From NCBI GenBank assembly GCA_964507405.1, contig CAZDPJ010000006.1:1020-65019 (forward strand): a stretch of 64,000 nt of DNA, read 5' to 3'. Origin of the DNA: an uncultured Staphylococcaceae bacterium (GTDB taxonomy: Bacteria > Bacillota_I > Bacilli_A > ML615J-28 > CAG-313). Under the pieces are notes generated by a model, which was not told where the DNA came from, did not search any database, and worked only from the letters and a program-made list of their open reading frames with translations. Shown here piece by piece: positions 1 to 11,148 of this stretch; the first letter of the stretch is position 1, and each line of letters opens with the position of its first letter. The position numbers were made by a program, and so were the translations under genes.

Positions 1-472
1 CAGCAAATATTGGTAATGCAAGAAAATTATCCGTAGGAATATTGAAGAAACCTTGAATTTGGTCTGCATGTAAGTCTAAACACATTATACGATTTGCACC
101 AGCAGTTTGAAGTAAATCCGCCATCAATTTTGCAGAAATAGGTTGTCTTGGTGCTGCTTTTCTGTCTTGTCTTGAATATCCATAATATGGCATTATAATA
201 TTGATATGTTCAGCTGATGCTCTTTTTAATGCATCTATCATTATTAATAATTCCATATAATTATCATTTACCGGATTACTTGTAGTTTGAATTACAAATA
301 CAGTATGTCCTCTAACTGTTTCATCTATATTAATTTGCACTTCTCCGTCAGCAAATCTTGTTACATGACATTGTGATAATTCTACATGCATGTATGCAGC
401 AATTTCTTCTGCTAGTTCTCTGTTAGAACTTAATGAAAATAATTTTACTTTTTTTCCTGATAATAAAGCCAT
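1..472 (-). CDS. prs: ribose-phosphate pyrophosphokinase, N-terminal part (gene runs off the window)
   Basis: Not in the ORF track because it is truncated. My minus-strand translation from the ATG at 470-472 reads [64 protein letters not shown]...[11 protein letters not shown]...[13 protein letters not shown], which is typical Prs. Confidence 0.9.
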
Positions 473-486
473 GATTTTTGTCTCCT

Positions 487-1407
487 CTATTTTAGTATTT
501 CTTTTACTTTTTCTATAATATCTTGTTTAGTCATATGATATGCTTCTAACAATTCATTATACTTCCCTACTTGTCCGAATTGATCTTGAACTCCAATTGC
601 ATATACTTTAACAGGTTTGTTTTTACAAACAAGTTCGCATACAGCACTATGTAATCCACCAATAACATTGTGATTTTCACATGTTAAAACAACATTTGTT
701 TTATTGATAGATTTAAGTAGAGTCTGTTCATCTAATGGTTTTATAAAATTAGCACTAATTAACTCTGCTTTTATTCCTTCTTTTTTTAATTCTGCTACAG
801 CTTCTTTTGCTTCATATACCATTGTACCTGAAGCTATAATTGTAATATCTTTTCCTTCTTCAATTACATCTGCTTTAAATAATTCAAACTTATAATCATC
901 ACCATATACATCTGGTCTAGTTTTTCTAGGTGTTCTGATATACATAGGTCCGTTATAAGATTCAATTTGTTCAACAGCTTGTTCTAATTGTTTTGCATCT
1001 ACTACATCAAATATTGTCATTGTAGGTATACTTCTAAGTACTCCTATATCTTCAAAACTCATATGTGTTCCACCATTTGTTTCAGCAGTGATACCAGGAT
1101 CTGTACCCCATATTTTTACATTTTGTTTAGCATAACAAACAGATATCATTATTTGGTCTAATGCACGTCTTGTTGAGAATGGAGCGAAACTAAATACATT
1201 TGGTTTTAAATTAGAAGCGGCAAGTCCAGCAGCAACACCAACCATATTAGCCTCAGCTATACCAACATTAAATGTTCTGTCTGGAAATTCTTTATATAAA
1301 GGATAGGTACCATTTGGTTTTGCAAGATCTGCATCAAGGATACATATGCTTTCATCTTGTTTCATTAATCTACTTAATTCTTTAGCAAGCGCTTGACGAA
1401 ATTCCAT
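487..1407 (-). CDS. transketolase, C-terminal (pyrimidine-binding) subunit of a split transketolase
   Basis: 306 aa. [18 protein letters not shown] and [11 protein letters not shown] motifs. Starts 1 nt after the stop of the N-terminal subunit gene. Confidence 0.9.
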
Positions 1408-1408
1408 C

Positions 1409-2230
1409 TTACTTATCCTCCAAATTTAATTCTTTCAATGCAAGTTGTAATTGTTCTTTACTTATTGGCATACTATGATTGCCAAGTAATGCTTCTTCTA
1501 TAAATTTTACACCTTTACCTTTAATTGTATCTAGTACAATCATATGTGGTTTATCTTTTATAGCTTTAGCTCTTTCAATTGCATTTGCAATATCATCTAA
1601 ATTATGCCCATCTATTTTTACAGTATCAAATCCAAAGCTATTCCATTTATCAACATAATTACCAACATATATAAGATTATTTGTATAATCATCGATTTGC
1701 ATTTTATTGTTATCTAAGAAAACAATTAAATTATCAAGTTTCTTTATACCAGCAAATTCAGCAGCTTCCCAGTTTTGTCCTTCTTCAAGTTCGCCATCAC
1801 CAATAATAACATAAACATACGCATCATTCTTTTTAACTTTATTAGCAAGTGCCATACCAACACCACATGATAATCCCTGACCAAGAGAACCAGTTGTCAT
1901 ATCAATACCAATTGTTTTATTCATATCACAATGACTTGGAAGATTAGTTCCAATTTTATTTAAAGTATAAAGTTCACTTTTAGAGAAATATCCTTTATGA
2001 GCAAGTGTTGCATATACTGCAGGTCCAGCATGTCCTTTAGATACAACTAATTTATCTCTTGTTTCCATTAAAGGATTAGTAGGATCTATATTCATTTCCT
2101 TATAATATAGAACAGTCAATAAATCAACAATCGAATAACTACCACCAATATGTCCAGAACCAAGTGATGCAATACATTCAATAGTTAATCCACGAATTTC
2201 ATTAGCAATTTTAGATAACTTACAATCCAT
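1409..2230 (-). CDS. transketolase, N-terminal (TPP-binding) subunit
   Basis: 273 aa. GSGHIGGSYSIVDLL, SKGHAGPAVYA and GDGELEEGQNWEA motifs. Confidence 0.9.
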   Translation of the reverse strand: MDCKLSKIANEIRGLTIECIASLGSGHIGGSYSIVDLLTVLYYKEMNIDPTNPLMETRDKLVVSKGHAGPAVYATLAHKGYFSKSELYTLNKIGTNLPSHCDMNKTIGIDMTTGSLGQGLSCGVGMALANKVKKNDAYVYVIIGDGELEEGQNWEAAEFAGIKKLDNLIVFLDNNKMQIDDYTNNLIYVGNYVDKWNSFGFDTVKIDGHNLDDIANAIERAKAIKDKPHMIVLDTIKGKGVKFIEEALLGNHSMPISKEQLQLALKELNLEDK

Positions 2231-2317
2231 TGTTTTTCACCTCATATATATTGTCTATCTATATTATACACTAATTATCTTTTTTTTGCATTAATTAAGT
2301 TAAAAAATAATAAAAGA

Positions 2318-2356
2318 ATAAAAAAGTTCCTATTGATTACGTATCAATAAGAACTT
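2318..2356 (-). terminator. rho-independent terminator after the Cys-repeat lipoprotein gene
   Basis: 13-bp stem (2325-2337 / 2343-2355, one mismatch), 5-nt loop, U-run on the minus strand (A-run 2320-2324 on plus). Confidence 0.6.
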
Positions 2357-2379
2357 TTAATATGATTTTATTTTTTTTA

Positions 2380-5300
2380 TTACAAAGTAATTGTGATTGA
2401 AGGAACAACTCCAATGTAATCCGATGAAAAAGGACTACCATAACTACCATTCATATATACATCCATCGTTTGATTTCTATACTGATTTGCTGGCGAACGA
2501 AGCCACCAAGAAGCAACCCATCTAAATTTTTCTTCTTGATAATAATAAACATAAACACCACTGCATCCTTTAGCAATAGTATAATCGCTTACTACTTTTT
2601 GGCGGTCTTCGTTATTTATAAATCCATATAATTCATTACATACATCACTTTTACTTAATAAATATACTTTGTCATATGTATCGTTACATATATATGGATT
2701 TTCAGTATACCCAGTTGATGCTAAACTATTATCAACTAGTGTAGTATTTATTTTTAATTGTAATTCTTCATTGAAAGCTTTATTATAGAATTCATCATTT
2801 AGCCATTTTCTTATATCAGAATATTCATAATTATTAGAATATATAGTTTGACCATCTATTATTCTATCTTCATTTGATACATTAAATTCTTTTATATCAA
2901 TTATTAAATCTGTAACTAATTTATATGTACCATTGTCTGATTCTAGTATTTTCCATTTAATTGGTTCTACTTTAAAATAATAAAATTCATTCTTTATTAA
3001 AACTGTTGAAATAGAAACAAAATCCGTGCGATTCTTCAATACAGCTTTCTGTTTTGCATATCTTTCACCATCACTACCTAAATAATACCCATTATCATCT
3101 GGAGTATCACTCGTAATAGTTACATTTTCATCTTTAATAGATTGAGGATATTCACCAAAATATATATAATTACCTACTAAGTTGCTAACTTCTGACATTT
3201 TAGTTTTGCAATATATACATTCATTTTCTGAAAATGTATGTCCATTTTTTTCTAAAACATTTGAATTAAATATCTCATCACATTCATCACATTTAACTAT
3301 TTTTAAACCTTCTTCTAAACAAGTTGGTTCAGTAACACTAATAGATATATGATGAAACTTATAATTATTTATGAATCCATATGCATTATCTAAAGTTGGA
3401 TTACCTTCATCATCTTGTAATTTATAGTTAGATGATGCAGGCCAACTAGTTCTATGATCATTAACAAAGAAATTATAAATTTCAGCATTTAATGTAGCAG
3501 GAGAACCGCAAAAACCTCTATATATAATATCTTCAAAATAAGTTGTTGATAAACCTGATGACTCACGTACACCCATAATATAATTTACCATCCAAGACCA
3601 TTTAGCTCTATATATTGTACTACCATAGAATGTAGAAGTAGAATTAGTAGCAGCTAAATACCAGCTTAAAGAACCATCAGGAGATAAATCACTAAGAACA
3701 ACAGCTTTTTTACCTTCACTTGTTCCAAATGTAGAATGATCAACACCTTCAAGATATTCTGTAATATCATTTAGATAATCATTGATCATAGCTTGTTTCT
3801 TTTCTTCATTAGTTGTTCCTTCGTATGGAAATCCAGGTTCTAAAGGAGTTTTTTCAAAAATTTTATTGCAATTTTTACAAGCAATTGCTTTATAGCCGTC
3901 ACTTGAACAAGTAGGCCATATTATTGTTTCAATTTTATCATGTTCTTTTTTAGGAATAATATTATATAATAAGCGTTCGCATCTTTCACATACTCCATAA
4001 GCAAAATAGCCTTCTGAATAGCAGGTAGCTGAAATGTGGCTATCAGATTCATTTAGAACTAAATGTCCTAATTTTTTAATTGATCTACTTTCTATGATTT
4101 CTTTACATGTTTTACATTCTATGTGTGCTGTTCCATTAGCAGTGCAAGTTGGTTCTAAATCAATTATATATAATTCTGTATGACCTAGTGCCGCAATCGG
4201 AACATATGACGATATGTAATCACACCTGCTACAAGAATCATATGCTTCATAACCTAATACAGTACATGTTGGCGCTTTCTTTTCATGACTTATGATGTCA
4301 TGACCTAATGCGTTAATAGTTTGATAGGTTGTATAACTACATCTTGAACAAGTATCATATAAATCATATCCAGATTCTAAACATGTTGGTTCTTTTTTTT
4401 CATGATTTATAATATCATGACCTAATTTTGTTATTGGTTCTAGTTTTAATATTGTATTACATGCTTTGCATTCTATATGTTTTGTTCCATTAGTAGTACA
4501 TGTTGCTTCTACGTCTGTTAACCATTCTGATTCTGTATGTCCTAACACGTTAATAATTTGATAAGTTGTATAACTACATCTAGAACAAGAATCATACGAA
4601 TCATATCCTGATTCTAAACATGTTGAGTCAACCTTTTCATGATTTATAATATCATGACCTAATTTTGTTATTGATTCTAGTTTTAATATTGTATTACATA
4701 CTTTACATTCTATATGTTTTGTTCCATTAGTAGTACAAGTTGCTTCTACATCTGTTAACCATTCTGATTCTGTATGGCCTAGTGCCTCAATAAGTTTATA
4801 CGAAGATATGTAATCACATCTGCTACATGAATCATATGCTTCATAACCTAGTACAGTACAAGTTGCTTCTTTCTTCTCATGATTTATAATATCATGACCT
4901 AATTTTGTTATTGGTTCTAATTTTAATATTGTATTACATATTTTACATTCTATATGCTTTGTTCCATTAGTAGTACAAGTTGCTTCTACATCTGTTAACC
5001 ATTCTAATTCTGTATGGCCTAGTGCTGGAATTTCATTATAAGTTGTATATATACATCTAGAACAAGTATCATATGCTTTATATCCTGATTCTAAACATGT
5101 TGCGTCAACCTTTTCATGATTTATAATATCATGACCTAGTTTATCAATTGGTTCTAGTTTTAATATTGTATTACATGCTTTGCATTCTATATGCTTTGTT
5201 CCATTAGTAGTACAAGTTGCTTCTAAGTCTATTAACCATTCTGATTCTGTATGGCCTAGTGCGTTAATAGTTTGATATGTTGTATAACTACATCTAGAAC

Positions 5301-5574
5301 AAGTATCATATGCTTTATATCCTGATTCTAAACATGTTGCTTCTTTCATCTCATGATTTATGATGTCATGACCTAATTTTTCTACTTTTTCAATAGAAAT
5401 AATTTGTTTACATTTTTCACACTCTTGATGTTTTATTCCATCATCTAAACAGGTTGCAGCGGAATCAATTACCCAAGCTACATTTTTATGCGTGCATTCT
5501 TCATCTTTTTTAGAACACCCTGTAAGTATAATTAAAAACATAAACATTACTATAAATATTCTACTTTTCTTCAT
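2380..5574 (-). CDS. giant surface lipoprotein: tandem four-Cys (zinc-ribbon-like) modules, an unknown central domain and a DUF6273-like C-terminal domain
   Basis: 1064 aa. Signal peptide with lipobox LTGC (aa 17-20). About 13 modules of about 40 aa in two alternating types (..EATCTTNGTKHIECKxCNTILKLEPIxKLG / HDIINHEKxxATCLESGYxAYDxCSRCxYTTY..ALG). C-terminus reads YIYFGEYPQS...WKIL...WWLRSP.... Confidence 0.8.
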   Translation of the reverse strand: MKKSRIFIVMFMFLIILTGCSKKDEECTHKNVAWVIDSAATCLDDGIKHQECEKCKQIISIEKVEKLGHDIINHEMKEATCLESGYKAYDTCSRCSYTTYQTINALGHTESEWLIDLEATCTTNGTKHIECKACNTILKLEPIDKLGHDIINHEKVDATCLESGYKAYDTCSRCIYTTYNEIPALGHTELEWLTDVEATCTTNGTKHIECKICNTILKLEPITKLGHDIINHEKKEATCTVLGYEAYDSCSRCDYISSYKLIEALGHTESEWLTDVEATCTTNGTKHIECKVCNTILKLESITKLGHDIINHEKVDSTCLESGYDSYDSCSRCSYTTYQIINVLGHTESEWLTDVEATCTTNGTKHIECKACNTILKLEPITKLGHDIINHEKKEPTCLESGYDLYDTCSRCSYTTYQTINALGHDIISHEKKAPTCTVLGYEAYDSCSRCDYISSYVPIAALGHTELYIIDLEPTCTANGTAHIECKTCKEIIESRSIKKLGHLVLNESDSHISATCYSEGYFAYGVCERCERLLYNIIPKKEHDKIETIIWPTCSSDGYKAIACKNCNKIFEKTPLEPGFPYEGTTNEEKKQAMINDYLNDITEYLEGVDHSTFGTSEGKKAVVLSDLSPDGSLSWYLAATNSTSTFYGSTIYRAKWSWMVNYIMGVRESSGLSTTYFEDIIYRGFCGSPATLNAEIYNFFVNDHRTSWPASSNYKLQDDEGNPTLDNAYGFINNYKFHHISISVTEPTCLEEGLKIVKCDECDEIFNSNVLEKNGHTFSENECIYCKTKMSEVSNLVGNYIYFGEYPQSIKDENVTITSDTPDDNGYYLGSDGERYAKQKAVLKNRTDFVSISTVLIKNEFYYFKVEPIKWKILESDNGTYKLVTDLIIDIKEFNVSNEDRIIDGQTIYSNNYEYSDIRKWLNDEFYNKAFNEELQLKINTTLVDNSLASTGYTENPYICNDTYDKVYLLSKSDVCNELYGFINNEDRQKVVSDYTIAKGCSGVYVYYYQEEKFRWVASWWLRSPANQYRNQTMDVYMNGSYGSPFSSDYIGVVPSITITL
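4284..5440 (-). repeat. in-frame near-identical tandem repeat, period 237-240 bp, about 5 units, inside the lipoprotein gene
   Basis: The string catgatttataatatcatgacctaa recurs at 4401, 4638, 4878 and 5115, with variants at 5352 and 4284. Long flanking stretches are also identical. Confidence 0.9.
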
Positions 5575-5763
5575 AAACTTCTCCCTTTCTTTTATAGTAA
5601 ATAAAGGTATACCTTTATGTTACTTAATACTTATATTTATTATATATATAAATAGAAGTTACTTTAGTATAAAAATATCTTTTTATTTGAAAAAATGAAT
5701 ATTTAAGAGTAAAATATATATATATAAATTAATAGTAAGTAAAGGTATGCCTTTACTTACTAA

Positions 5764-5793
5764 GAAAAAAAGATATTAGTTTCCTAATATCTT
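5764..5793 (-). terminator. spoVG terminator (bidirectional hairpin)
   Basis: aagatattag / ctaatatctt 10-bp stem, tttc loop, with an A-run on one side and a T-run on the other. Confidence 0.75.
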
Positions 5794-5796
5794 TTT

Positions 5797-6051
5797 TTAT
5801 GCTTCTTCATTGTATTTAGCAAGTACAACATCCTCTATCATCTGTCTCGTTTCTACATTGATTGGGTGTGCAATATCCTTATATTCACCTTGTGGTGTTT
5901 TTTTGTTTGGCATTGCAATGAATAAACCATTTTGTCCTTCTATCACTCTTAGTTCATGTATAACAAATGCATTATCAATTGTTATAGAAGCTACTGCTCT
6001 TAAGCGGTTTTGTCCTTCTACCTTTCTAATTTTGATATCTGTAATTTGCAT
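5797..6051 (-). CDS. spoVG: septation/sporulation regulator SpoVG
   Basis: MQITDIKIRKVEGQNRLRAVASITIDNAFVIHELRVIEG...FIAMPNKKTPQGEYKDIAHPIN. I trimmed the track ORF (to 6114) to the ATG at 6049-6051, which is preceded by GAAAGGTGG. Confidence 0.93.
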   Translation of the reverse strand: MQITDIKIRKVEGQNRLRAVASITIDNAFVIHELRVIEGQNGLFIAMPNKKTPQGEYKDIAHPINVETRQMIEDVVLAKYNEEA

Positions 6052-6074
6052 AAAATCCCACCTTTCATATATAT

Positions 6075-6102
6075 ATTGTATCATATGAAAACGTTTTCTC
6101 AA
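6075..6102 (-). promoter_or_regulatory. putative spoVG promoter (TTGAGA-16-TGaTACAAT) overlapped by the 12-bp palindrome GAAAACGTTTTC
   Basis: -10 reverse complement at 6075-6080, -35 reverse complement at 6097-6102. TGAAAACGTTTTCT (6086-6099) matches the cre consensus TGWAANCGNTNWCA at 13 of 14 positions. Confidence 0.4.
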
Positions 6103-6226
6103 AATGTTTTGCAAGTTTTTGTTTTTTCATGAATATTTTATTCTTTATATCATATACTATTATTGTAAGAAATGGATATATGAATATATCTTTAAATGTT
6201 TCTTACTAAAAATATAGACCACGATT

Positions 6227-7021
6227 TTACTCGTGGTCATTTTGTTTTTTTGTTTCCTTATAACTTGTTGGTTTAGTTAATTTAGATTTACAGTATTCAA
6301 CTACCTCTTCAATGTTTTCACAAGAATCTTTTTTAATGATCATTGCTTGATAGCCTGCCATATTAATATACATATATTTACCATCATCTTCAATTGATTT
6401 AATAGCAGCCCAAGGAATAGGTAAAATATTTTTTTGAGGTTTTTGTTCTTCTTGTTCTTGAACTTCTTCGCTAGTTTCTGCTTGTTCTTGAGCATCATCA
6501 CAAGTTTCTACTACTTGTTCTTCTTGAGCAGTCTCACTACTATCTACTTCAGTTTCTTCTTGAACTTCTTCACTGTGATATTCTTCTTCTCTCATTTCAT
6601 TATTAGTAGGAATATCTTCTATTGGCGTAACAGTATGAATATCACCATCATCATAGCGTACTGGTTCTTCTGTTTGTTCTTCTTCGATAGGTATTTCAAA
6701 TGTAATGCCTTCTTCATTAATAGTAACATCCATAGGTATTGGTGGATATTCTGAAGTAATTTTCTTTCTAATCATTTTCTTTTGTGATATTAGCATTAAT
6801 GGATTTAGGAATACTGCTCCAAAAACACCCATTGCAATAACTAATATACATGTTATATATTGAGGGTTTTCCTTAAATAAATCAATAACACCAAGTATAA
6901 TTAAAAATACACCTAGTACTCTTGTCATGATTGATGCTCTTGATCTTTTAGTCGCAATATAGCAATTATATGCTATTAAATCATCTGGTAATAAAATTTG
7001 ATTAAATTGTGTTTTTTCCAT
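6227..7021 (-). CDS. YcxB-like two-TM membrane protein with a long acidic insert
   Basis: 264 aa. Two hydrophobic helices (aa 35-80). Glu/Gln-rich segment at aa 110-195. The family call is tentative. Confidence 0.45.
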   Translation of the reverse strand: MEKTQFNQILLPDDLIAYNCYIATKRSRASIMTRVLGVFLIILGVIDLFKENPQYITCILVIAMGVFGAVFLNPLMLISQKKMIRKKITSEYPPIPMDVTINEEGITFEIPIEEEQTEEPVRYDDGDIHTVTPIEDIPTNNEMREEEYHSEEVQEETEVDSSETAQEEQVVETCDDAQEQAETSEEVQEQEEQKPQKNILPIPWAAIKSIEDDGKYMYINMAGYQAMIIKKDSCENIEEVVEYCKSKLTKPTSYKETKKQNDHE

Positions 7022-7023
7022 TT

Positions 7024-7836
7024 TTATTTTTCTCCTTCTGTTGTTTTTATTATCTTTATTATATATAAAGGATAATCATGTTTTAGTTTAGATACTACTT
7101 TTTTCTTATTTAAAGAAGTATCTAAAAATAATGTAGAACCAGTCCCAGACATAATGACTGTACCATATTTAGATATATCATCTATTACAGTTTTTAATTT
7201 TGGTTCACATAAATATGTTGCATTTTGTAACTCATTATAATAATTATGATTATTTAAATCATCTATTATATTAGATGAACTCTCAACTTTATCTATTTTA
7301 TCAAATGTATTAAAAACATCTTTTGTATTTATATATATATTAGGATAAATTAATATTAAGGTTTCCTTTTGATATTTAACCTTTGTTATTTTTTCTCCTA
7401 TTCCTTCAACTAAACAAGTTTTATCATACAATCCATATGGAATATCTGCCCCAAATGGAGTTAGGAATTTAATTAATTCATCAGTTGTAAGATTTAATTT
7501 TTCTATTATGTTTATTTTTTTTATAATATAACCTATATCCATACTTACTCCACCAAGGCCAGCACCAAAGGGGATATATTTAAATATCTTAATTTGATAA
7601 TTTGTTAGTATATTATATTTTTCCTTAAATTTATTTAATACCACTAATATTAAATCATTTTCTTTTTGATATTCAGGATGATTTATATATATTACCTCAT
7701 CTTTGTTTTTTGTTTTTTTTATTTTAATAATATCGCAGAAATTGATTCTTGTATTAATCATTTGTAAGTTATGGTATTCTAAATCATTTTTATTTAGAAC
7801 TTTCAAAATTAAGTTCATTTTTGCCTTTATTTTCAT
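7024..7836 (-). CDS. ispE: 4-diphosphocytidyl-2-C-methyl-D-erythritol kinase (GHMP kinase)
   Basis: 270 aa. AKMNLILKV...YHNL, PFGAGLGGVSMD (GHMP motif) and MSGTGSTLF. Same neighbourhood as B. subtilis ksgA-yabG-...-ispE. Confidence 0.8.
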   Translation of the reverse strand: MKIKAKMNLILKVLNKNDLEYHNLQMINTRINFCDIIKIKKTKNKDEVIYINHPEYQKENDLILVVLNKFKEKYNILTNYQIKIFKYIPFGAGLGGVSMDIGYIIKKINIIEKLNLTTDELIKFLTPFGADIPYGLYDKTCLVEGIGEKITKVKYQKETLILIYPNIYINTKDVFNTFDKIDKVESSSNIIDDLNNHNYYNELQNATYLCEPKLKTVIDDISKYGTVIMSGTGSTLFLDTSLNKKKVVSKLKHDYPLYIIKIIKTTEGEK

Positions 7837-7844
7837 TAATTCAC

Positions 7845-8615
7845 CTATAATAACATTTTCATTTTTCCTTTTGTTTCAATTCCTCCAAAAGCTTCTCTTC
7901 CTTTTTCTATTAACTCAATACAATAATTAAAATCTATTGTTTTATTACAAGATGTAGAAGCTACTTTAATTGCTATTACAGCAGGGTCATAGGTATGAAT
8001 ATTTATTCTTTTAGGACTAGAAGCAAAATTAGCTCCTGAAGCAATTAATGCTTCGAAATTAGATCCACACGCCCCAGCAATAACTACCATCGCATCTTGA
8101 TTAAAGTGTTTTCTAATTATCCTTATTGCTTCTATGAAATTATTTGTATTTTCATAATTATTTAAATCTTTAATTCCTTTTCCATTATATACATCATGAC
8201 CAGTTATTACAACAATATCAGGAGTAATAGATAAAATGATATTTTCTATTTTATTTTTTATTTCATTTTCTTTTATATATATACCTTCAGCAGGAATTCC
8301 TATTTCCTTATATAATTCTAAACAACTATCTAGATATTCTTTATCTCCATCGATATGAAGAACTCTACCAAATAAATAGGAAGATGAATTTCTTGTTCTT
8401 TTAGTATTCATTAAGTTTCTTTCATAGTTATTATTTATTAATTCCTCTTGTTTTAATATTTTATCATTAACAAGTTCTAAGTTAGATAATTCAACTAATC
8501 TAACTATTCTATGATTATATCCTTTTATTAAGGCTTTTTCACACCTTATTTCTTGTATTATATATATAATCGGGTCTATGTCGCTTTTTAAAATAACTAA
8601 ATCAGAAACTTCCAT
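7845..8615 (-). CDS. yabG: sporulation-specific protease YabG (peptidase U57)
   Basis: PDIVVITGHD motif and conserved position after rsmA. The likely start is the ATG at 8613-8615, 5 nt after GGTGA. The track ORF begins at a GTG at 8627. Confidence 0.8.
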   Translation of the reverse strand: MEVSDLVILKSDIDPIIYIIQEIRCEKALIKGYNHRIVRLVELSNLELVNDKILKQEELINNNYERNLMNTKRTRNSSSYLFGRVLHIDGDKEYLDSCLELYKEIGIPAEGIYIKENEIKNKIENIILSITPDIVVITGHDVYNGKGIKDLNNYENTNNFIEAIRIIRKHFNQDAMVVIAGACGSNFEALIASGANFASSPKRINIHTYDPAVIAIKVASTSCNKTIDFNYCIELIEKGREAFGGIETKGKMKMLL

Positions 8616-8642
8616 ATATATCACCACTTATATTATATGTGG

Positions 8643-9482
8643 TTATTTATTAATTGTGCTATATAAATCATCAGATAATTTAATTATTTGTTCTACTGAT
8701 AATGCTTCTGCTCTAACGGTTAGTGATAGATTATTATTTAAAATTACTTTTTCTATTTCTTCTTTTGTTAAATTATAATTTGATTTAATATTATTATATA
8801 ATGTTTTTCTTCTTTGAGAAAAGATAATACGATTAAACTTTAAAAAGAAGGATTCATTTAAAAGAACAGGTAATTCATCTTTTAATTCTAACTTAATAAC
8901 TGTACTATCTACATCAGGAGCAGGAATGAAACATTTGGGTGATACATTAAATAAAATACATGGATTTGTATAATACTGAATTAGCACACTTAAACTATTA
9001 TAATCCTTAGTCGAAGGTTTGCCACATAGTCTATATGCAACTTCTTTTTGAACCATTACAATAATACTTTTTACTTTTTTTGTTTCTTCTAATATTTTAG
9101 TAAGAATTGCGGTGGTGATATAATAAGGCAAATTAGATACAACTACAACATCTTCGTTATTAAAGTATTGGTTAATTTCACTGTTTAAATTAATATTTAA
9201 AAAGTCTTTATGTAATATTTCAATATTATTATATATATTATATTCTTCTTTTAGAATATTTATCATATCAACATCAATTTCATAACATACTAGTTTTTTA
9301 GCTTTTTTAACTAATAGCTTAGTTAAAGAGCCTAGTCCTGGTCCTATTTCAATAACATTTTTGTTTTCAATATTAGATGCATCAACAATTTTATTTAATA
9401 TATTTTGGTCTATTAAAAAATTTTGACCAAACTTCTTTTTTGCTTTGATATCTTTTGTTTTAATTATTTCTTTTACTTCCAT
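8643..9482 (-). CDS. rsmA: 16S rRNA (adenine1518/1519-N6)-dimethyltransferase
   Basis: 279 aa. KKFGQNFLID, IEIGPGLGSLT and VSNLPYYITT. Confidence 0.95.
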   Translation of the reverse strand: MEVKEIIKTKDIKAKKKFGQNFLIDQNILNKIVDASNIENKNVIEIGPGLGSLTKLLVKKAKKLVCYEIDVDMINILKEEYNIYNNIEILHKDFLNINLNSEINQYFNNEDVVVVSNLPYYITTAILTKILEETKKVKSIIVMVQKEVAYRLCGKPSTKDYNSLSVLIQYYTNPCILFNVSPKCFIPAPDVDSTVIKLELKDELPVLLNESFFLKFNRIIFSQRRKTLYNNIKSNYNLTKEEIEKVILNNNLSLTVRAEALSVEQIIKLSDDLYSTINK

Positions 9483-9598
9483 ATTAATTTACCTTTTATA
9501 TATATTCATTATAACACAAATAAAATAAAATAACAAGAAAAAATGTTTATACCACTTTCTTTTAATAAATATATAATAATATTTAAAAAAGAAGACTT

Positions 9599-10108
9599 TT
9601 ATTCAAAGTCCTCTTCTGTTAATTCATCTTCTTCTACTTCGTCTTTTTCATTTTCAACTTCTGTTAATTCTCTTTCTGTTTCAGCATCCATATTTTCAAA
9701 TTCGCGAGCGATATCATCATCTTCATCTTCGTCAACATCATCTTCATCGTCTTCGTCTTCATCATCTGAAACATAATCTTCGTCGTAGATTTCATCTTTT
9801 AACTCATTCTTCTTAACGTCTTCATCATCATAGTAGATTTCTTCATAATCACCACCATCTTTATCTAAGACAGCTGTTGATTGACGTTCTTTTAAATCCC
9901 AACAATCATCACCACAATATACAAAAATTCCAGATTGCATAAAATCTAATATAAATTGTGCTGAATGGTCTTTTATCATTTGACCTTTATAGCCTTTTAA
10001 TTCCATTACTTCTGCCATTATTGCTAGTATTTTTTGAGGTTTACGCTTTTTTTGTAAGAGTTCTACAGCAAGTTCTAATAATGATTTATCTTTGTCTTTA
10101 GCTCCCAT
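9599..10108 (-). CDS. rpoE: RNA polymerase delta subunit
   Basis: 169 aa. N-terminal HARE-HTH-like domain (LLELAVELL...FILDFMQSGIFVY...WDLKERQ) plus a long Asp/Glu tail. Confidence 0.85.
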   Translation of the reverse strand: MGAKDKDKSLLELAVELLQKKRKPQKILAIMAEVMELKGYKGQMIKDHSAQFILDFMQSGIFVYCGDDCWDLKERQSTAVLDKDGGDYEEIYYDDEDVKKNELKDEIYDEDYVSDDEDEDDEDDVDEDEDDDIAREFENMDAETERELTEVENEKDEVEEDELTEEDFE

Positions 10109-10189
10109 GGTTATCCTCCTATATATTCATTAACTTTTTGTATTATACTATATTTTATTTAAAAATGCAAATCATTATCATTTTTATTT

Positions 10190-10393
10190 TTATATTAATG
10201 TATAAATCATAATTCCAACAAGTCCTGGTATTCGTAAAATACCAACGATTAGTAATGTAAAGATATTAATTGGTATATTTAAATTAAAATATGAACCAAT
10301 AAAATTAAATATAAATAAAGTAACAATGCCTATTAATAATGATTTAATCATATATTTAAAAAAGTCTAACAAATGCTTTAAAAAAGTTTTCAT
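10190..10393 (-). CDS. bofA: BofA-family pro-sigma-K processing inhibitor
   Basis: 67 aa, two TM helices. NLNIPINIFTLLIVGILRIPGLVG matches the BofA signature (..PINL.T....G.LGIPG..). Confidence 0.7.
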   Translation of the reverse strand: MKTFLKHLLDFFKYMIKSLLIGIVTLFIFNFIGSYFNLNIPINIFTLLIVGILRIPGLVGIMIYTLI

Positions 10394-10431
10394 ATATCCC
10401 CCTTATTATTATATAATATGAGGGATTATTT

Positions 10432-11148
10432 TTATTTATGATATTTGTTATATATATCAACATCAGTCATATTAAATGTTAATGGTGTAATTGATATATA
10501 TTCTTGTTTTATTGTTTGAATGTCTCCATATTCATCATCTAATAATGGATTAAATTTATCACAAATAGAGTGATATAATCCATCATCCCTTTGTTCATAT
10601 CTTGTTATATAAGTACTTTTAGTTTGATGAGTTATCCTAATTCCTTTTGATATTTTTGGAAGATTAACATTTAATACAACTTTTTCATTCCACAAATTGC
10701 TATTTAAGATATAGTTCATAGCATCATCAAAATATTTACTTCCTTCAAAACTATCATATCTACATGATACAGCAATTGCTTTTTTACCTTTCATCAAGCC
10801 TTCCATCGCAGCCGCAACTGTTCCTGAATATACAATATCATCACCTAAATTATATCCTCTATTAATTCCTGATACTACAACATCAATATCAAGTTTTAAT
10901 TGATTTATCGCAAAAACAACACAATCAGATGGAGTTCCACTTAAACTATATGTTAAAACGCCGTCATATATATCTTCTAATTTTTCTAGTTTTAATCCTT
11001 CTTTTATTGTTAAGGCGTGACTATTAGCTGATTTTTCTATACTAGGTGCAACAACTACAATTTTTTTAGCATAAGGAATTAACTTTTCAACAAGTAATTT
11101 TATTCCTTCTGCTTTAACTCCATCATCATTGACAACAAGTATATTCAT
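10432..11148 (-). CDS. surE: 5'/3'-nucleotidase SurE
   Basis: 238 aa. MNILVVNDDG..., SGINRGYNLGDDIVYSGTVAAAMEG. Its start overlaps the upstream stop by 1 nt (TAATG). Confidence 0.9.
   Translation of the reverse strand: MNILVVNDDGVKAEGIKLLVEKLIPYAKKIVVVAPSIEKSANSHALTIKEGLKLEKLEDIYDGVLTYSLSGTPSDCVVFAINQLKLDIDVVVSGINRGYNLGDDIVYSGTVAAAMEGLMKGKKAIAVSCRYDSFEGSKYFDDAMNYILNSNLWNEKVVLNVNLPKISKGIRITHQTKSTYITRYEQRDDGLYHSICDKFNPLLDDEYGDIQTIKQEYISITPLTFNMTDVDIYNKYHK

Follow-up and report, generated by a model that had tools for sequence, protein, structure and literature searches.

Cysteine-rich modules in tandem within a predicted surface lipoprotein raise two questions. Do the cysteines hold metal or form disulfides, and does the array change in length as it does in the size-variable lipoproteins of mycoplasmas? 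Both arise for an open reading frame of 1,064 aa on the minus strand (2380-5574) of the window, the 64,000-nucleotide stretch of DNA that was analysed, from an uncultured gut bacterium.

Gene and domain layout

The N-terminus of the encoded protein, MKKSRIFIVMFMFLIILTGC, contains a lipobox, L-T-G-C at aa 17-20, which fits the pattern [LVI][ASTVI][GAS]C. Genes of the lipoprotein pathway are present in the genome (Lgt, 193 bits; LspA, 116 bits), and the PBPs encoded there indicate a peptidoglycan-walled organism. No sortase was detected in this genome, which is 86% complete. The gene lies in an insertion of ~3.47 kb, flanked by spoVG and the gene for the transketolase N-subunit, at a site where sister species have ~35 bp. 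The features of the locus are collected in Table 1.

Table 1 Features of the gene and its surroundings, in window positions.
Feature	Position	Strand	Basis
Signal peptide and lipobox, aa 1-20, MKKSRIFIVMFMFLIILTG/C; Cys20 is the predicted lipidated N-terminus	5515..5574	-	Sequence
Putative stalk of 14 tandem His/Cys3 modules, ~40 aa each, about aa 27-580	3835..5496	-	Module mapping
Five tandem DNA units of 237/240 bp, each one A+B double module	4300..5490	-	Pairwise identity 65-91%
951-nt segment of four double modules, ~aa 94-410, absent in the short allele	4346..5296	-	Allele comparison
Clade-restricted, mainly alpha-helical middle domain, aa 581-738	3361..3834	-	AF2 helical core; no Pfam/NCBIfam match
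Fifteenth module, A-type, aa 739-779, and truncated H...CxxC remnant, about aa 779-792	3199..3360	-	Module mapping
Distal head, DUF6273 (PF19789), C-type-lectin-like, aa 793-1064	2383..3198	-	Pfam; fold and context from PMC12237041, PMC12402451, PMC10743442
Upstream region with RBS GGGAG 7 nt before ATG	5575..5732	-	Consensus match
Candidate promoter TTTTCA-16-TATACT	5693-5666	-	Consensus match
Intrinsic-terminator-like hairpin, 16 pairs and T-run, directly 3' of the stop codon	2322..2358	-	Sequence
Lineage-specific insertion of ~3.47 kb with promoter, gene and terminator	2297..5765	.	Comparison with sister species

One histidine and three cysteines in each module

Two module types follow one another from aa 29 to ~580. 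The core of type A is C-x3-G-x5-C-x2-C and that of type B is C-x3-GY-x2-Y-x2-C-x-R-C. The array reads A-B five times and then B, A, B, A, so that the alternation described in the earlier note holds for most of its length and breaks at modules 10-11. The number of Cys is exactly three in every module (C-x9/10-C-x2-C), and a conserved His stands 12-13 residues ahead of the first of them. This His comes from the preceding 'LGH', with which most modules end, though not every one as had been stated. The full pattern, H-x11/12-C-x9/10-C-x2-C, is found in all 14 modules of the array. What had been taken for about 13 four-Cys modules are, on mapping, 15 modules (14 + 1) of three Cys and one His each, plus an H...CxxC remnant.

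The four residues are invariant across a four-module alignment (A3). In a set of 121 proteins, the complete H/C/CxxC set is present in 1,990 of the 2,170 module-like matches. A family consensus was built from 560 modules; of type B, 96% have the His at -12, and apart from the ligands and the turn residues the sequence is only weakly conserved. We saw no clear signal of a ligand swap, in which a His is gained where the first Cys is lost, among 2,341 module-like matches.

A classical Cys4 zinc ribbon was rejected because it needs two CxxC knuckles, whereas the module has one CxxC, one single Cys and one His. The Pfam/NCBIfam scan of the whole protein gave no zinc-ribbon domain above threshold and DUF6273 as its sole match. 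Matches to the zinc-finger-like families LSD1, EDR4 and YABBY were below threshold and contained no significant stretch, and a PHROGs scan of the whole protein returned weak matches only.

A widespread module family with one published counterpart

When 1.84 billion proteins were searched with the module profile, 66,221 representative clusters matched; the largest module-bearing proteins reach 7,583 aa. The modules are therefore very common in Bacillota surface proteins, contrary to the earlier view that extracellular Cys modules of this kind, then read as Cys4 rather than His+Cys3, are unusual. Even so, neither Pfam nor NCBIfam has a model that covers them. The other module-bearing proteins of the genome are mostly of the lipobox type, with BspA-LRR or GH18 domains.

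The sole sequence match in the PDB is the IgA protease of Thomasclavelia ramosa, 9qa6_A. Residues 22-149 of our query align with residues 847-980 of the protease (E 1.3e-5), and a second segment pairs residues 191-214 with 1106-1129. The matches overlap ZBD1 and ZBD2 (CTD2/CTD4, beta3-beta6), which are the only published counterpart of the modules. These domains have predicted 2His2Cys or 3Cys1His zinc sites, and by SAXS the isolated CTD2 is a fully extended rod; the domains have been read as spacers, or a "periscope" (PMC12237041, PMC12415215). The cryo-EM structure of 9QA6 ends at residue 876, ahead of the ZBDs.

Like the IgA protease (IgAse/ThomasA), the protein described here combines all-beta subdomains of ~40 aa, each with four His/Cys ligands, with a DUF6273 C-type-lectin-like domain. 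In both, the modules sit between the anchor and the functional domain, although the protease is anchored at its C-terminus. The protease has 3+2 subdomains, mostly 2His2Cys, between other beta domains, together with an M64 catalytic domain. The present protein instead has 15 His+Cys3 modules, 14 of them in a tandem array, a predicted N-terminal lipid anchor, no protease and a distal DUF6273. Copy-number variation between strains also sets this protein apart. For the protease as for the present protein, the fold of the modules and their zinc binding are predictions.

Predicted fold and metal site

An AF2 model of aa 106-269, a segment of 164 aa comprising four modules (A-B-A-B), consisted of strands only and had a pLDDT of 95.2; with a pTM of 0.55, the model does not fix the geometry between modules. 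Foldseek found no match for the modelled modules in the PDB at E<=1e-3. The best matches below this threshold were elongated stalk proteins, namely SasG G5-E, Aap and GhpA.

In the reading that we propose, a single metal ion in tetrahedral coordination, probably zinc, would clasp each module through the module-opening His, the Cys of a T-C-T-x-G turn and the C-x-x-C knuckle. From the pattern of conserved residues we consider that the His/Cys3 modules probably bind metal.

Whether metal or disulfides hold such domains together has already been asked of the ZBD module type in the T. ramosa protease (PMC12237041, PMC12415215). Extracellular Cys-rich repeats are disulfide-bonded in many systems, and the modules could in principle be redox elements that form inter-module or intermolecular disulfides, or serve as thiol sensors, with no metal involved. 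However, a His is co-conserved with the three Cys in each module, and with an odd number of Cys per module the cysteines cannot all pair in intramodule disulfides. Neither the experimental structures nor the predicted models of the T. ramosa protease show disulfides (PMC12237041, PMC12415215), although the enzyme has 24 Cys (PMC12237041). The host of the present protein is an uncultured gut Bacillota-type bacterium whose habitat is presumably anoxic. All the above make disulfide or redox modules a very improbable alternative to the metal site.

A further alternative accepts the metal site and gives it another role. The modules might themselves be the functional part, either for the capture or storage of zinc or another metal or as adhesive repeats along the rod, and not a passive spacer. 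Fifteen potential metal sites in one protein would suit such a role, as would an enormous family in which a single protein can have up to tens of modules in an array. So would the zinc-dependent adhesion discussed in PMC12415215 for G5-E repeats (Aap and SasG), which are also among the weak top fold matches. But once four ligands occupy the metal, no coordination position is left over for exchange or bridging, an argument made in PMC12415215, and the sequence outside the ligands and turn residues is poorly conserved. The modules are moreover accompanied by unrelated heads (LRR_5, GH18, cohesin, dockerin, SLH, DUF6273 and M64 protease), as is typical of spacers. We regard functional modules as unlikely and prefer a spacer in which the metal would have a structural part.

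The DUF6273 head and the middle domain

The earlier note had placed DUF6273 at the C-terminus, and the Pfam scan bears this out. PF19789 matches aa 884-1062 over profile positions 4-170 of 172 (E 3.7e-21; 76.2 bits against a cut-off of 23.5), and the landmarks YIYFGEYPQ ... WWLRSP ... GVVPSITITL can be followed along the head. DUF6273 has a C-type-lectin-like fold, solved in the NTD of the protease, and in gut phages it is a DGR-diversified receptor-binding domain (PMC12237041, PMC12402451, PMC10743442, PMC11792537). It is dispensable for IgA cleavage by the T. ramosa protease. A HMMER profile of the DUF6273 subfamily had no match in the PDB. As no direct similarity was found, we link the head to the protease NTD through their shared Pfam assignment (PMC12402451).

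As in the DGR targets of gut phages (tentaclins and others; PMC10743442, PMC11792537), DUF6273 ends a chain of small beta domains and is presumed to bind a receptor. The present chain is a His/Cys3 stalk, whereas that of the phage proteins is built of Ig-like domains, and we are dealing with a predicted chromosomal lipoprotein in place of a virion protein. A DGR variable protein was considered and rejected: a search of the genome (86% complete) for a reverse transcriptase gave no RVT_1 match, and the 3' end of the gene does not recur in it as a template repeat would.

Between the array and the last module lies the unrecognised domain of the earlier note. That description holds up: the stretch of ~160-170 aa is without annotation (no Pfam or NCBIfam match), and one Cys module follows it at aa 739-779. 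This domain has a paralogous copy on another contig of the genome (C16) and only 4 homologues by word search. Its AF2 model has an overall pLDDT of 56, with a helical core at 65-93, and Foldseek gave no PDB match and a meaningless match list. Between two strains its dN/dS is 1.47, a value derived from small counts. This helical domain interrupts the putative rod, a point against the stalk proposed below.

A long and a short allele

The five DNA units that encode the double modules lie at 4300-4539, 4537-4776, 4777-5016, 5014-5253 and 5251-5490. Their period of 237/240 matches the recurrence points given in the earlier note, which had also called them near-identical. On measurement they are considerably diverged, with pairwise identities of 65-91% in DNA (91% in the best adjacent pair) and 49-89% in protein; TRF reports 84% matches. 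The longest exact repeat within the array is 52 nt.

A comparison of strains, which had been proposed as a check, showed that the repeat number does differ. A conspecific strain has, at the same locus and with flanks 99.3% identical, a short allele (P0002, Logan contig, locus L001) that lacks exactly 951 nt (237+240+237+237) in frame. The loss amounts to four double modules, or eight of the 14 modules, and leaves one double unit where the long allele has five. The junction is a clean hybrid of module 2 and module 10. As the crossover fell within an identical tract of 15 nt, the boundaries of the 951-nt segment are defined to +/-15 nt. We propose that whole double modules are lost or gained in frame when the diverged 237/240-bp units recombine unequally or slip.

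These are the only two alleles among ~15 billion proteins searched. Nothing closer than 52% identity was found with the N-terminal 200 aa, by cluster look-up or in a whole-protein search, and a whole-protein search for related loci gave none in genome contigs or metagenome contigs. The length of the stalk is genetically variable, as seen in a single event and two alleles.

Could one of the alleles be an artefact? Short-read metagenome-type assemblies stand behind both sequences, and tandem repeats are a classic source of error, by which the five-unit array could be over-expanded or the one-unit Logan allele collapsed. The earlier note had left this option open. Yet the five units are mutually different and each can be distinguished from the others, and the exact repeats of <=52 nt are shorter than the reads. 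In register, modules 2 and 10 of the long allele are identical over 15 nt, which is too short for a k=31 graph to jump or collapse, and the short allele is in frame on an unbroken contig of 13.2 kb. We thus give an assembly artefact almost no credence and take the two alleles as real.

The gene evolves several times faster than its neighbours, with a dN of 0.040 compared with 0-0.006 in the flanking genes, a surface-type evolution. In the size-variable lipoproteins of mycoplasmas, such as the Vlp family, the repeat units are short and practically identical and change at a high rate. The earlier note had read the present protein in this way, as a size-variable surface antigen. On such a view the array would expand and contract rapidly within a population by slipped-strand or RecA recombination, mainly for immune evasion. 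With the mycoplasma proteins the present one shares the predicted lipid anchor, in-frame tandem repeats and a length that differs between strains, here by four units between conspecific strains. The elevated dN and the labels 'Mollicutes' or 'Bacilli' on sister records point the same way.

However, units of 237-240 nt with no exact tract longer than 52 nt, and one of 15 nt at the junction, rule out repeats of the short, near-perfect mycoplasma type. They encode folded modules with a predicted metal site, and the presence of PBPs and thus of peptidoglycan synthesis genes argues that the organism is not wall-less. Repeats as diverged as these are poorly suited to recombining often. Differences of 9-35% between units far exceed the 0.7% by which the flanks of the two strains differ, from which it follows that the array has been stable since before the strains split, one deletion apart. 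No intermediate alleles are found in the databases. Of the earlier reading, the difference in repeat number between strains stands, while high-frequency switching of the mycoplasma kind appears rather unlikely. With two alleles and diverged repeats, the pattern looks like rare or occasional deletion.

A further comparison is with the Periscope Proteins (SasG/Aap G5-E, Rib and SHIRT/Sgo_0707; Whelan 2021, PMC8201768). They share with our protein, as we read it, the surface-anchored rod of tandem folded domains, the distal putative binding domain and the in-frame loss of whole units. Canonical members vary frequently and have very similar repeats, with 82-100% protein identity between adjacent SHIRT domains (PMC8201768), whereas the units here fall lower, at 49-89%, and have one variant allele. 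The anchors also differ, a predicted N-terminal lipid here and a C-terminal LPXTG motif in the Periscope Proteins, and the stalk folds are unrelated.

Proposed role of the protein

Taken together, the domain order, the module pattern and the allele pair make it probable that in its host, an uncultured gut bacterium of the Bacilli, the protein is a fibrillar adhesin anchored in the membrane, with a metal-stapled stalk of variable length. We infer the lipidation, the metal binding, the rod shape, the stalk function and the adhesive function of the head. The lipidated Cys20 would hold the protein in the membrane, and fourteen beta modules of ~40 aa, placed end to end, would form a thin rod. This rod would carry the helical middle domain, one more module and the DUF6273 head through and beyond the wall, where the head would bind a ligand, for example a host or microbial glycan or protein.

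It is conceivable, though we think it doubtful, that the stalk is also tunable by metal. Its stiffness or extension, and with it the exposure of the head beyond the wall, would then be set by the zinc available in the gut, e.g. under zinc sequestration by the host, while the greatest possible reach would depend on how many double modules recombination has removed or added. If this is true, surface display would be controlled at two levels, by means of a module family of more than 66,000 representative clusters that has no curated model or solved structure. The 164-aa A-B-A-B segment, modelled at a pLDDT of 95, is a compact and well-behaved test piece, and the natural pair of long and short alleles offers material for asking if stalk length matters.

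Taken by itself, the gene encodes a surface protein of the ordinary accessory kind in an uncultured commensal. Both of its building blocks are common, and one IgA protease was already known to contain them. The combination of stalk and DUF6273 known from that T. ramosa enzyme also occurs protease-free, as a probable adhesin, and few uncurated building blocks are commoner than this module in the surface proteins of gut Bacillota.

The gene and its genomic setting

The lipoprotein is encoded by a single open frame of 1,064 codons with a good ribosome-binding site (GGGAG, 7 nt 5' of the ATG). As the spoVG terminator lies upstream and the gene is followed by a terminator-like hairpin of its own, the gene looks monocistronic. 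The N-terminus of the protein, MKKSRIFIVMFMFLIILTG followed by C, forms a signal peptide containing a canonical lipobox, and both Lgt and LspA are encoded by the same genome. This assembly (1.51 Mb, GC 28.5%, completeness 86%) has as its closest named relatives uncultured gut MAGs labelled "Mollicutes bacterium UMGS75" or "Bacilli bacterium". It encodes penicillin-binding proteins; no sortase (PF04203) was detected in the whole 86%-complete assembly, and its large surface proteins seem to use lipoboxes or C-terminal hydrophobic anchors instead.

A degenerate copy, TAAGTAACATAAAGGTATACCTTTATTTACTA, of the spoVG terminator hairpin TAGTAAGTAAAGGCATACCTTTACTTACTA is located ~130 nt downstream of the original, right before the ribosome-binding site of the lipoprotein gene, and may be the footprint of the insertion event or a 5'-UTR hairpin. 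In a YcxB-like membrane protein of the window, imperfect tandem repeats of 30 and 36 nt code for an acidic low-complexity insert; the insert is of a different length in the sister species.

Coordinates of the features (window positions unless a contig is named)
Feature	Position	Strand	Remarks
Lipoprotein gene	2380-5574	minus	
Terminator-like hairpin of the lipoprotein gene	2322-2358		
Degenerate hairpin copy	5595-5626	minus	
spoVG terminator	5733-5762	minus	upstream of lipoprotein gene
Lineage-specific insertion	2297-5765		promoter, gene, terminator
YcxB-like protein	6227-7021	minus	
Tandem repeats of its insert	6446-6563		
Paralogous middle-domain copy	C16:24929-25429		locus L095, protein P0122; 75% aa, 88.7% nt identity to window 3361-3834
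GH18 lipobox protein (L094)	C18:9170-13129		1,319 aa

Module anatomy

The module array, the alternation of the ~40-aa types A and B and the DNA periodicity described in the earlier note are all present, as are the unannotated middle domain (aa 581-738), the extra module after the array and the C-terminal DUF6273 (PF19789) match. Several details needed correction. The modules had been called four-Cys, yet the number of Cys per module is three throughout (C-x9/10-C-x2-C), accompanied by a conserved His, which lies 12-13 residues upstream of the module's first Cys and is the His of the "LGH" ending the preceding module. When four-module segments of this and other proteins were aligned (20 rows), all modules kept the His and the three Cys without exception. 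The B-type consensus, LGHDlv.HeAKAPTCTE.GW.AYeTCSRCDYTTY.EiPAlGH, was derived from 560 modules of 36 proteins, and the His is at -12 in 96% of the B modules. Instead of about 13 modules there are 15 (14 + 1), plus one H...CxxC remnant. The DNA repeats, described as near-identical, comprise five units with 65-91% pairwise identity (TRF matches 84%), and the longest exact repeat within the array is 52 nt.

A shorter allele in a conspecific strain

The protein collection contains one close relative, P0002, a 746-aa protein from a Logan assembly of a conspecific strain, which is the only other member of the lipoprotein's 90% cluster (n=2). Its contig, L001, is syntenic with the window (spoVG, the gene, tkt genes). 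Positions 1-6324 correspond to window 11576-5251 (99.3% identity) and 6134-10618 to window 4490-1 (96.9%); the 191-nt overlap of the two alignments marks the repeat register shift. The short allele has exactly 951 nt fewer (237+240+237+237), which equals four A+B double modules. In a base-by-base comparison, the short allele switches at its nt 264-278: the left side tracks long-allele module 2 and the right side module 10, the latter with 100% identity for >150 nt. One of its B modules is therefore a clean hybrid. Because divergence is 9-35% between units and only 0.7% between the flanks of the two strains, the five-unit array must be older than the separation of the strains, which makes the short form an in-frame deletion.

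An assembly artefact is a less well supported explanation. Modules 2 and 10 share an in-register tract of just 15 nt, and no exact repeat exceeds 52 nt, so k-mer collapse or expansion explains neither assembly. No further alleles were found by protein search with the N-terminal 200 aa or in metagenome contigs. The proposal of recombinational length change is thus supported by the 951-nt allele difference, while the mycoplasma-style rapid switching suggested along with it is not supported. The evidence points to rare length-change events on a diverged array, which leaves a high-frequency antigenic switch less well supported.

Insertion and evolutionary rate

The spoVG-tkt interval is ~35 bp in two sister species, and no full-length orthologue was found in the same-genus genomes searched. 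The segment from promoter to terminator is a lineage-specific insertion. Between strains, dN and dS are 0.040 and 0.073 for the lipoprotein gene and 0-0.006 and 0.012-0.027 for four flanking genes. In the middle domain, 22 differences are non-synonymous and 4 synonymous (dN/dS 1.47, from small counts), and dS is elevated to 0.18 in modules 11-14.

The middle domain is rare, with four homologues by word-based search, among them the paralogue on contig C16. Its model is a helical bundle of moderate confidence, for which a PDB match was not found. P0122, the protein carrying the paralogous copy, is secreted, has 1,001 aa and bears a hydrophobic anchor at its C-terminus (...LLVFLLRKKH). The middle-domain sites that differ between strains form runs in which the paralogue agrees alternately with one allele and then the other, which suggests gene conversion between the paralogues. 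The insertion status, rates and conversion pattern are those typically seen in an accessory surface protein that is exposed and evolves fast.

Distribution of the module

A word-based search gave >4,334 matches among the 8,000 candidates scored, fused to cohesin, dockerin, BspA-type LRR, FIVAR, Listeria-Bacteroides repeat and DUF6273 domains; most lie outside the coverage of any Pfam family. A HMMER profile of the module, run against 1.84 billion representative proteins, matched 66,221 at E≤1e-3, 41,611 at E≤1e-10 and 15,391 at E≤1e-30; the longest of these proteins reach 7,583 aa, and some contain >30 matched stretches. Matches occur in 26 of 31 genomes of the order to which the window's organism belongs, the maximum in one genome being 26. 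The window's own small genome encodes about six more proteins with such modules, several of them with lipobox-type N-termini: modules are joined to BspA-LRR blocks on contigs C4, C1 and C24 and to a GH18/EndoS-like domain on C18, and a 3,306-aa protein on C14 has no Pfam match. The modules, which had been considered unusual, are therefore neither unusual nor confined to this gene.

The C18 protein combines a lipobox, His/Cys3 modules, Listeria-Bacteroides repeats and a C-terminal GH18 domain weakly similar to the EndoS TIM barrel, and appears as a candidate surface endo-beta-N-acetylglucosaminidase. Giant module-rich open frames are found in same-genus and same-family genomes of only 1.2-1.8 Mb (G003:C3, 4,139 aa; G006:C23, 3,912 aa; G009:C18, 4,026 aa); an appreciable part of these reduced genomes is given over to the module family.

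Relation to an IgA protease and proposed architecture

The sole PDB sequence matching the lipoprotein is the Thomasclavelia ramosa IgA protease (9qa6_A, residues 847-980 and 1106-1129). Papers of 2025 assign this region to ZBD1 (879-1008) and ZBD2 (1101-1171), also named CTD2/CTD4 or beta3-beta6, which are all-beta subdomains linked by predicted tetrahedral zinc sites (2His2Cys, one 3Cys1His); it has been proposed as a spacer or "metal-associated periscope domain", and the SAXS data of CTD2 in isolation agree with a rod in full extension (PMC12237041, PMC12415215). The ZBD fold is a predicted one, as the cryo-EM model stops at residue 876 (PMC12237041, PMC12415215). The protease DUF6273 has a C-type-lectin-like core in the cryo-EM structure, and IgA cleavage does not require it (PMC12237041). 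Diversity-generating retroelements of gut phages have DUF6273 domains of the receptor-binding type among their targets (PMC10743442, PMC11792537); neither a reverse transcriptase nor a template repeat was found in the window's genome, so diversification of this type does not apply there.

AlphaFold2 modelling of aa 106-269 (A-B-A-B, 20-row alignment) gave only beta strands, with mean pLDDT 95.2 and pTM 0.55. Foldseek returned no PDB match at E≤1e-3; the weak best matches include SasG G5-E, Aap B-repeats and GhpA grappling-hook fragments, all from elongated stalk proteins. Two significant matches among predicted viral structures, "S-layer homology" and "leucine rich repeat" proteins on gut-virome contigs, represent a surface-protein context of the same kind.

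The anchor-stalk-head order of the lipoprotein is mirrored in the IgA protease, although the protease anchor is C-terminal. This is the main argument for reading the modules as spacers. Metal capture or adhesive repeats are less well supported readings, and so are disulfide or redox modules. As spacers, 14 beta modules with predicted metal clasps would form a rod that, lipid-anchored at Cys20, carries the helical domain and lectin-like head off the membrane and through the wall, and loss of eight modules would shorten its reach by more than half. The observation of the earlier note is thus partly confirmed and its interpretation partly supported. The lipoprotein is most likely a fibrillar or periscope-like surface protein of an already known kind, with IgAse-type His/Cys modules and a DUF6273 head, and its locus now documents a natural, in-frame polymorphism in the length of a stalk like this.
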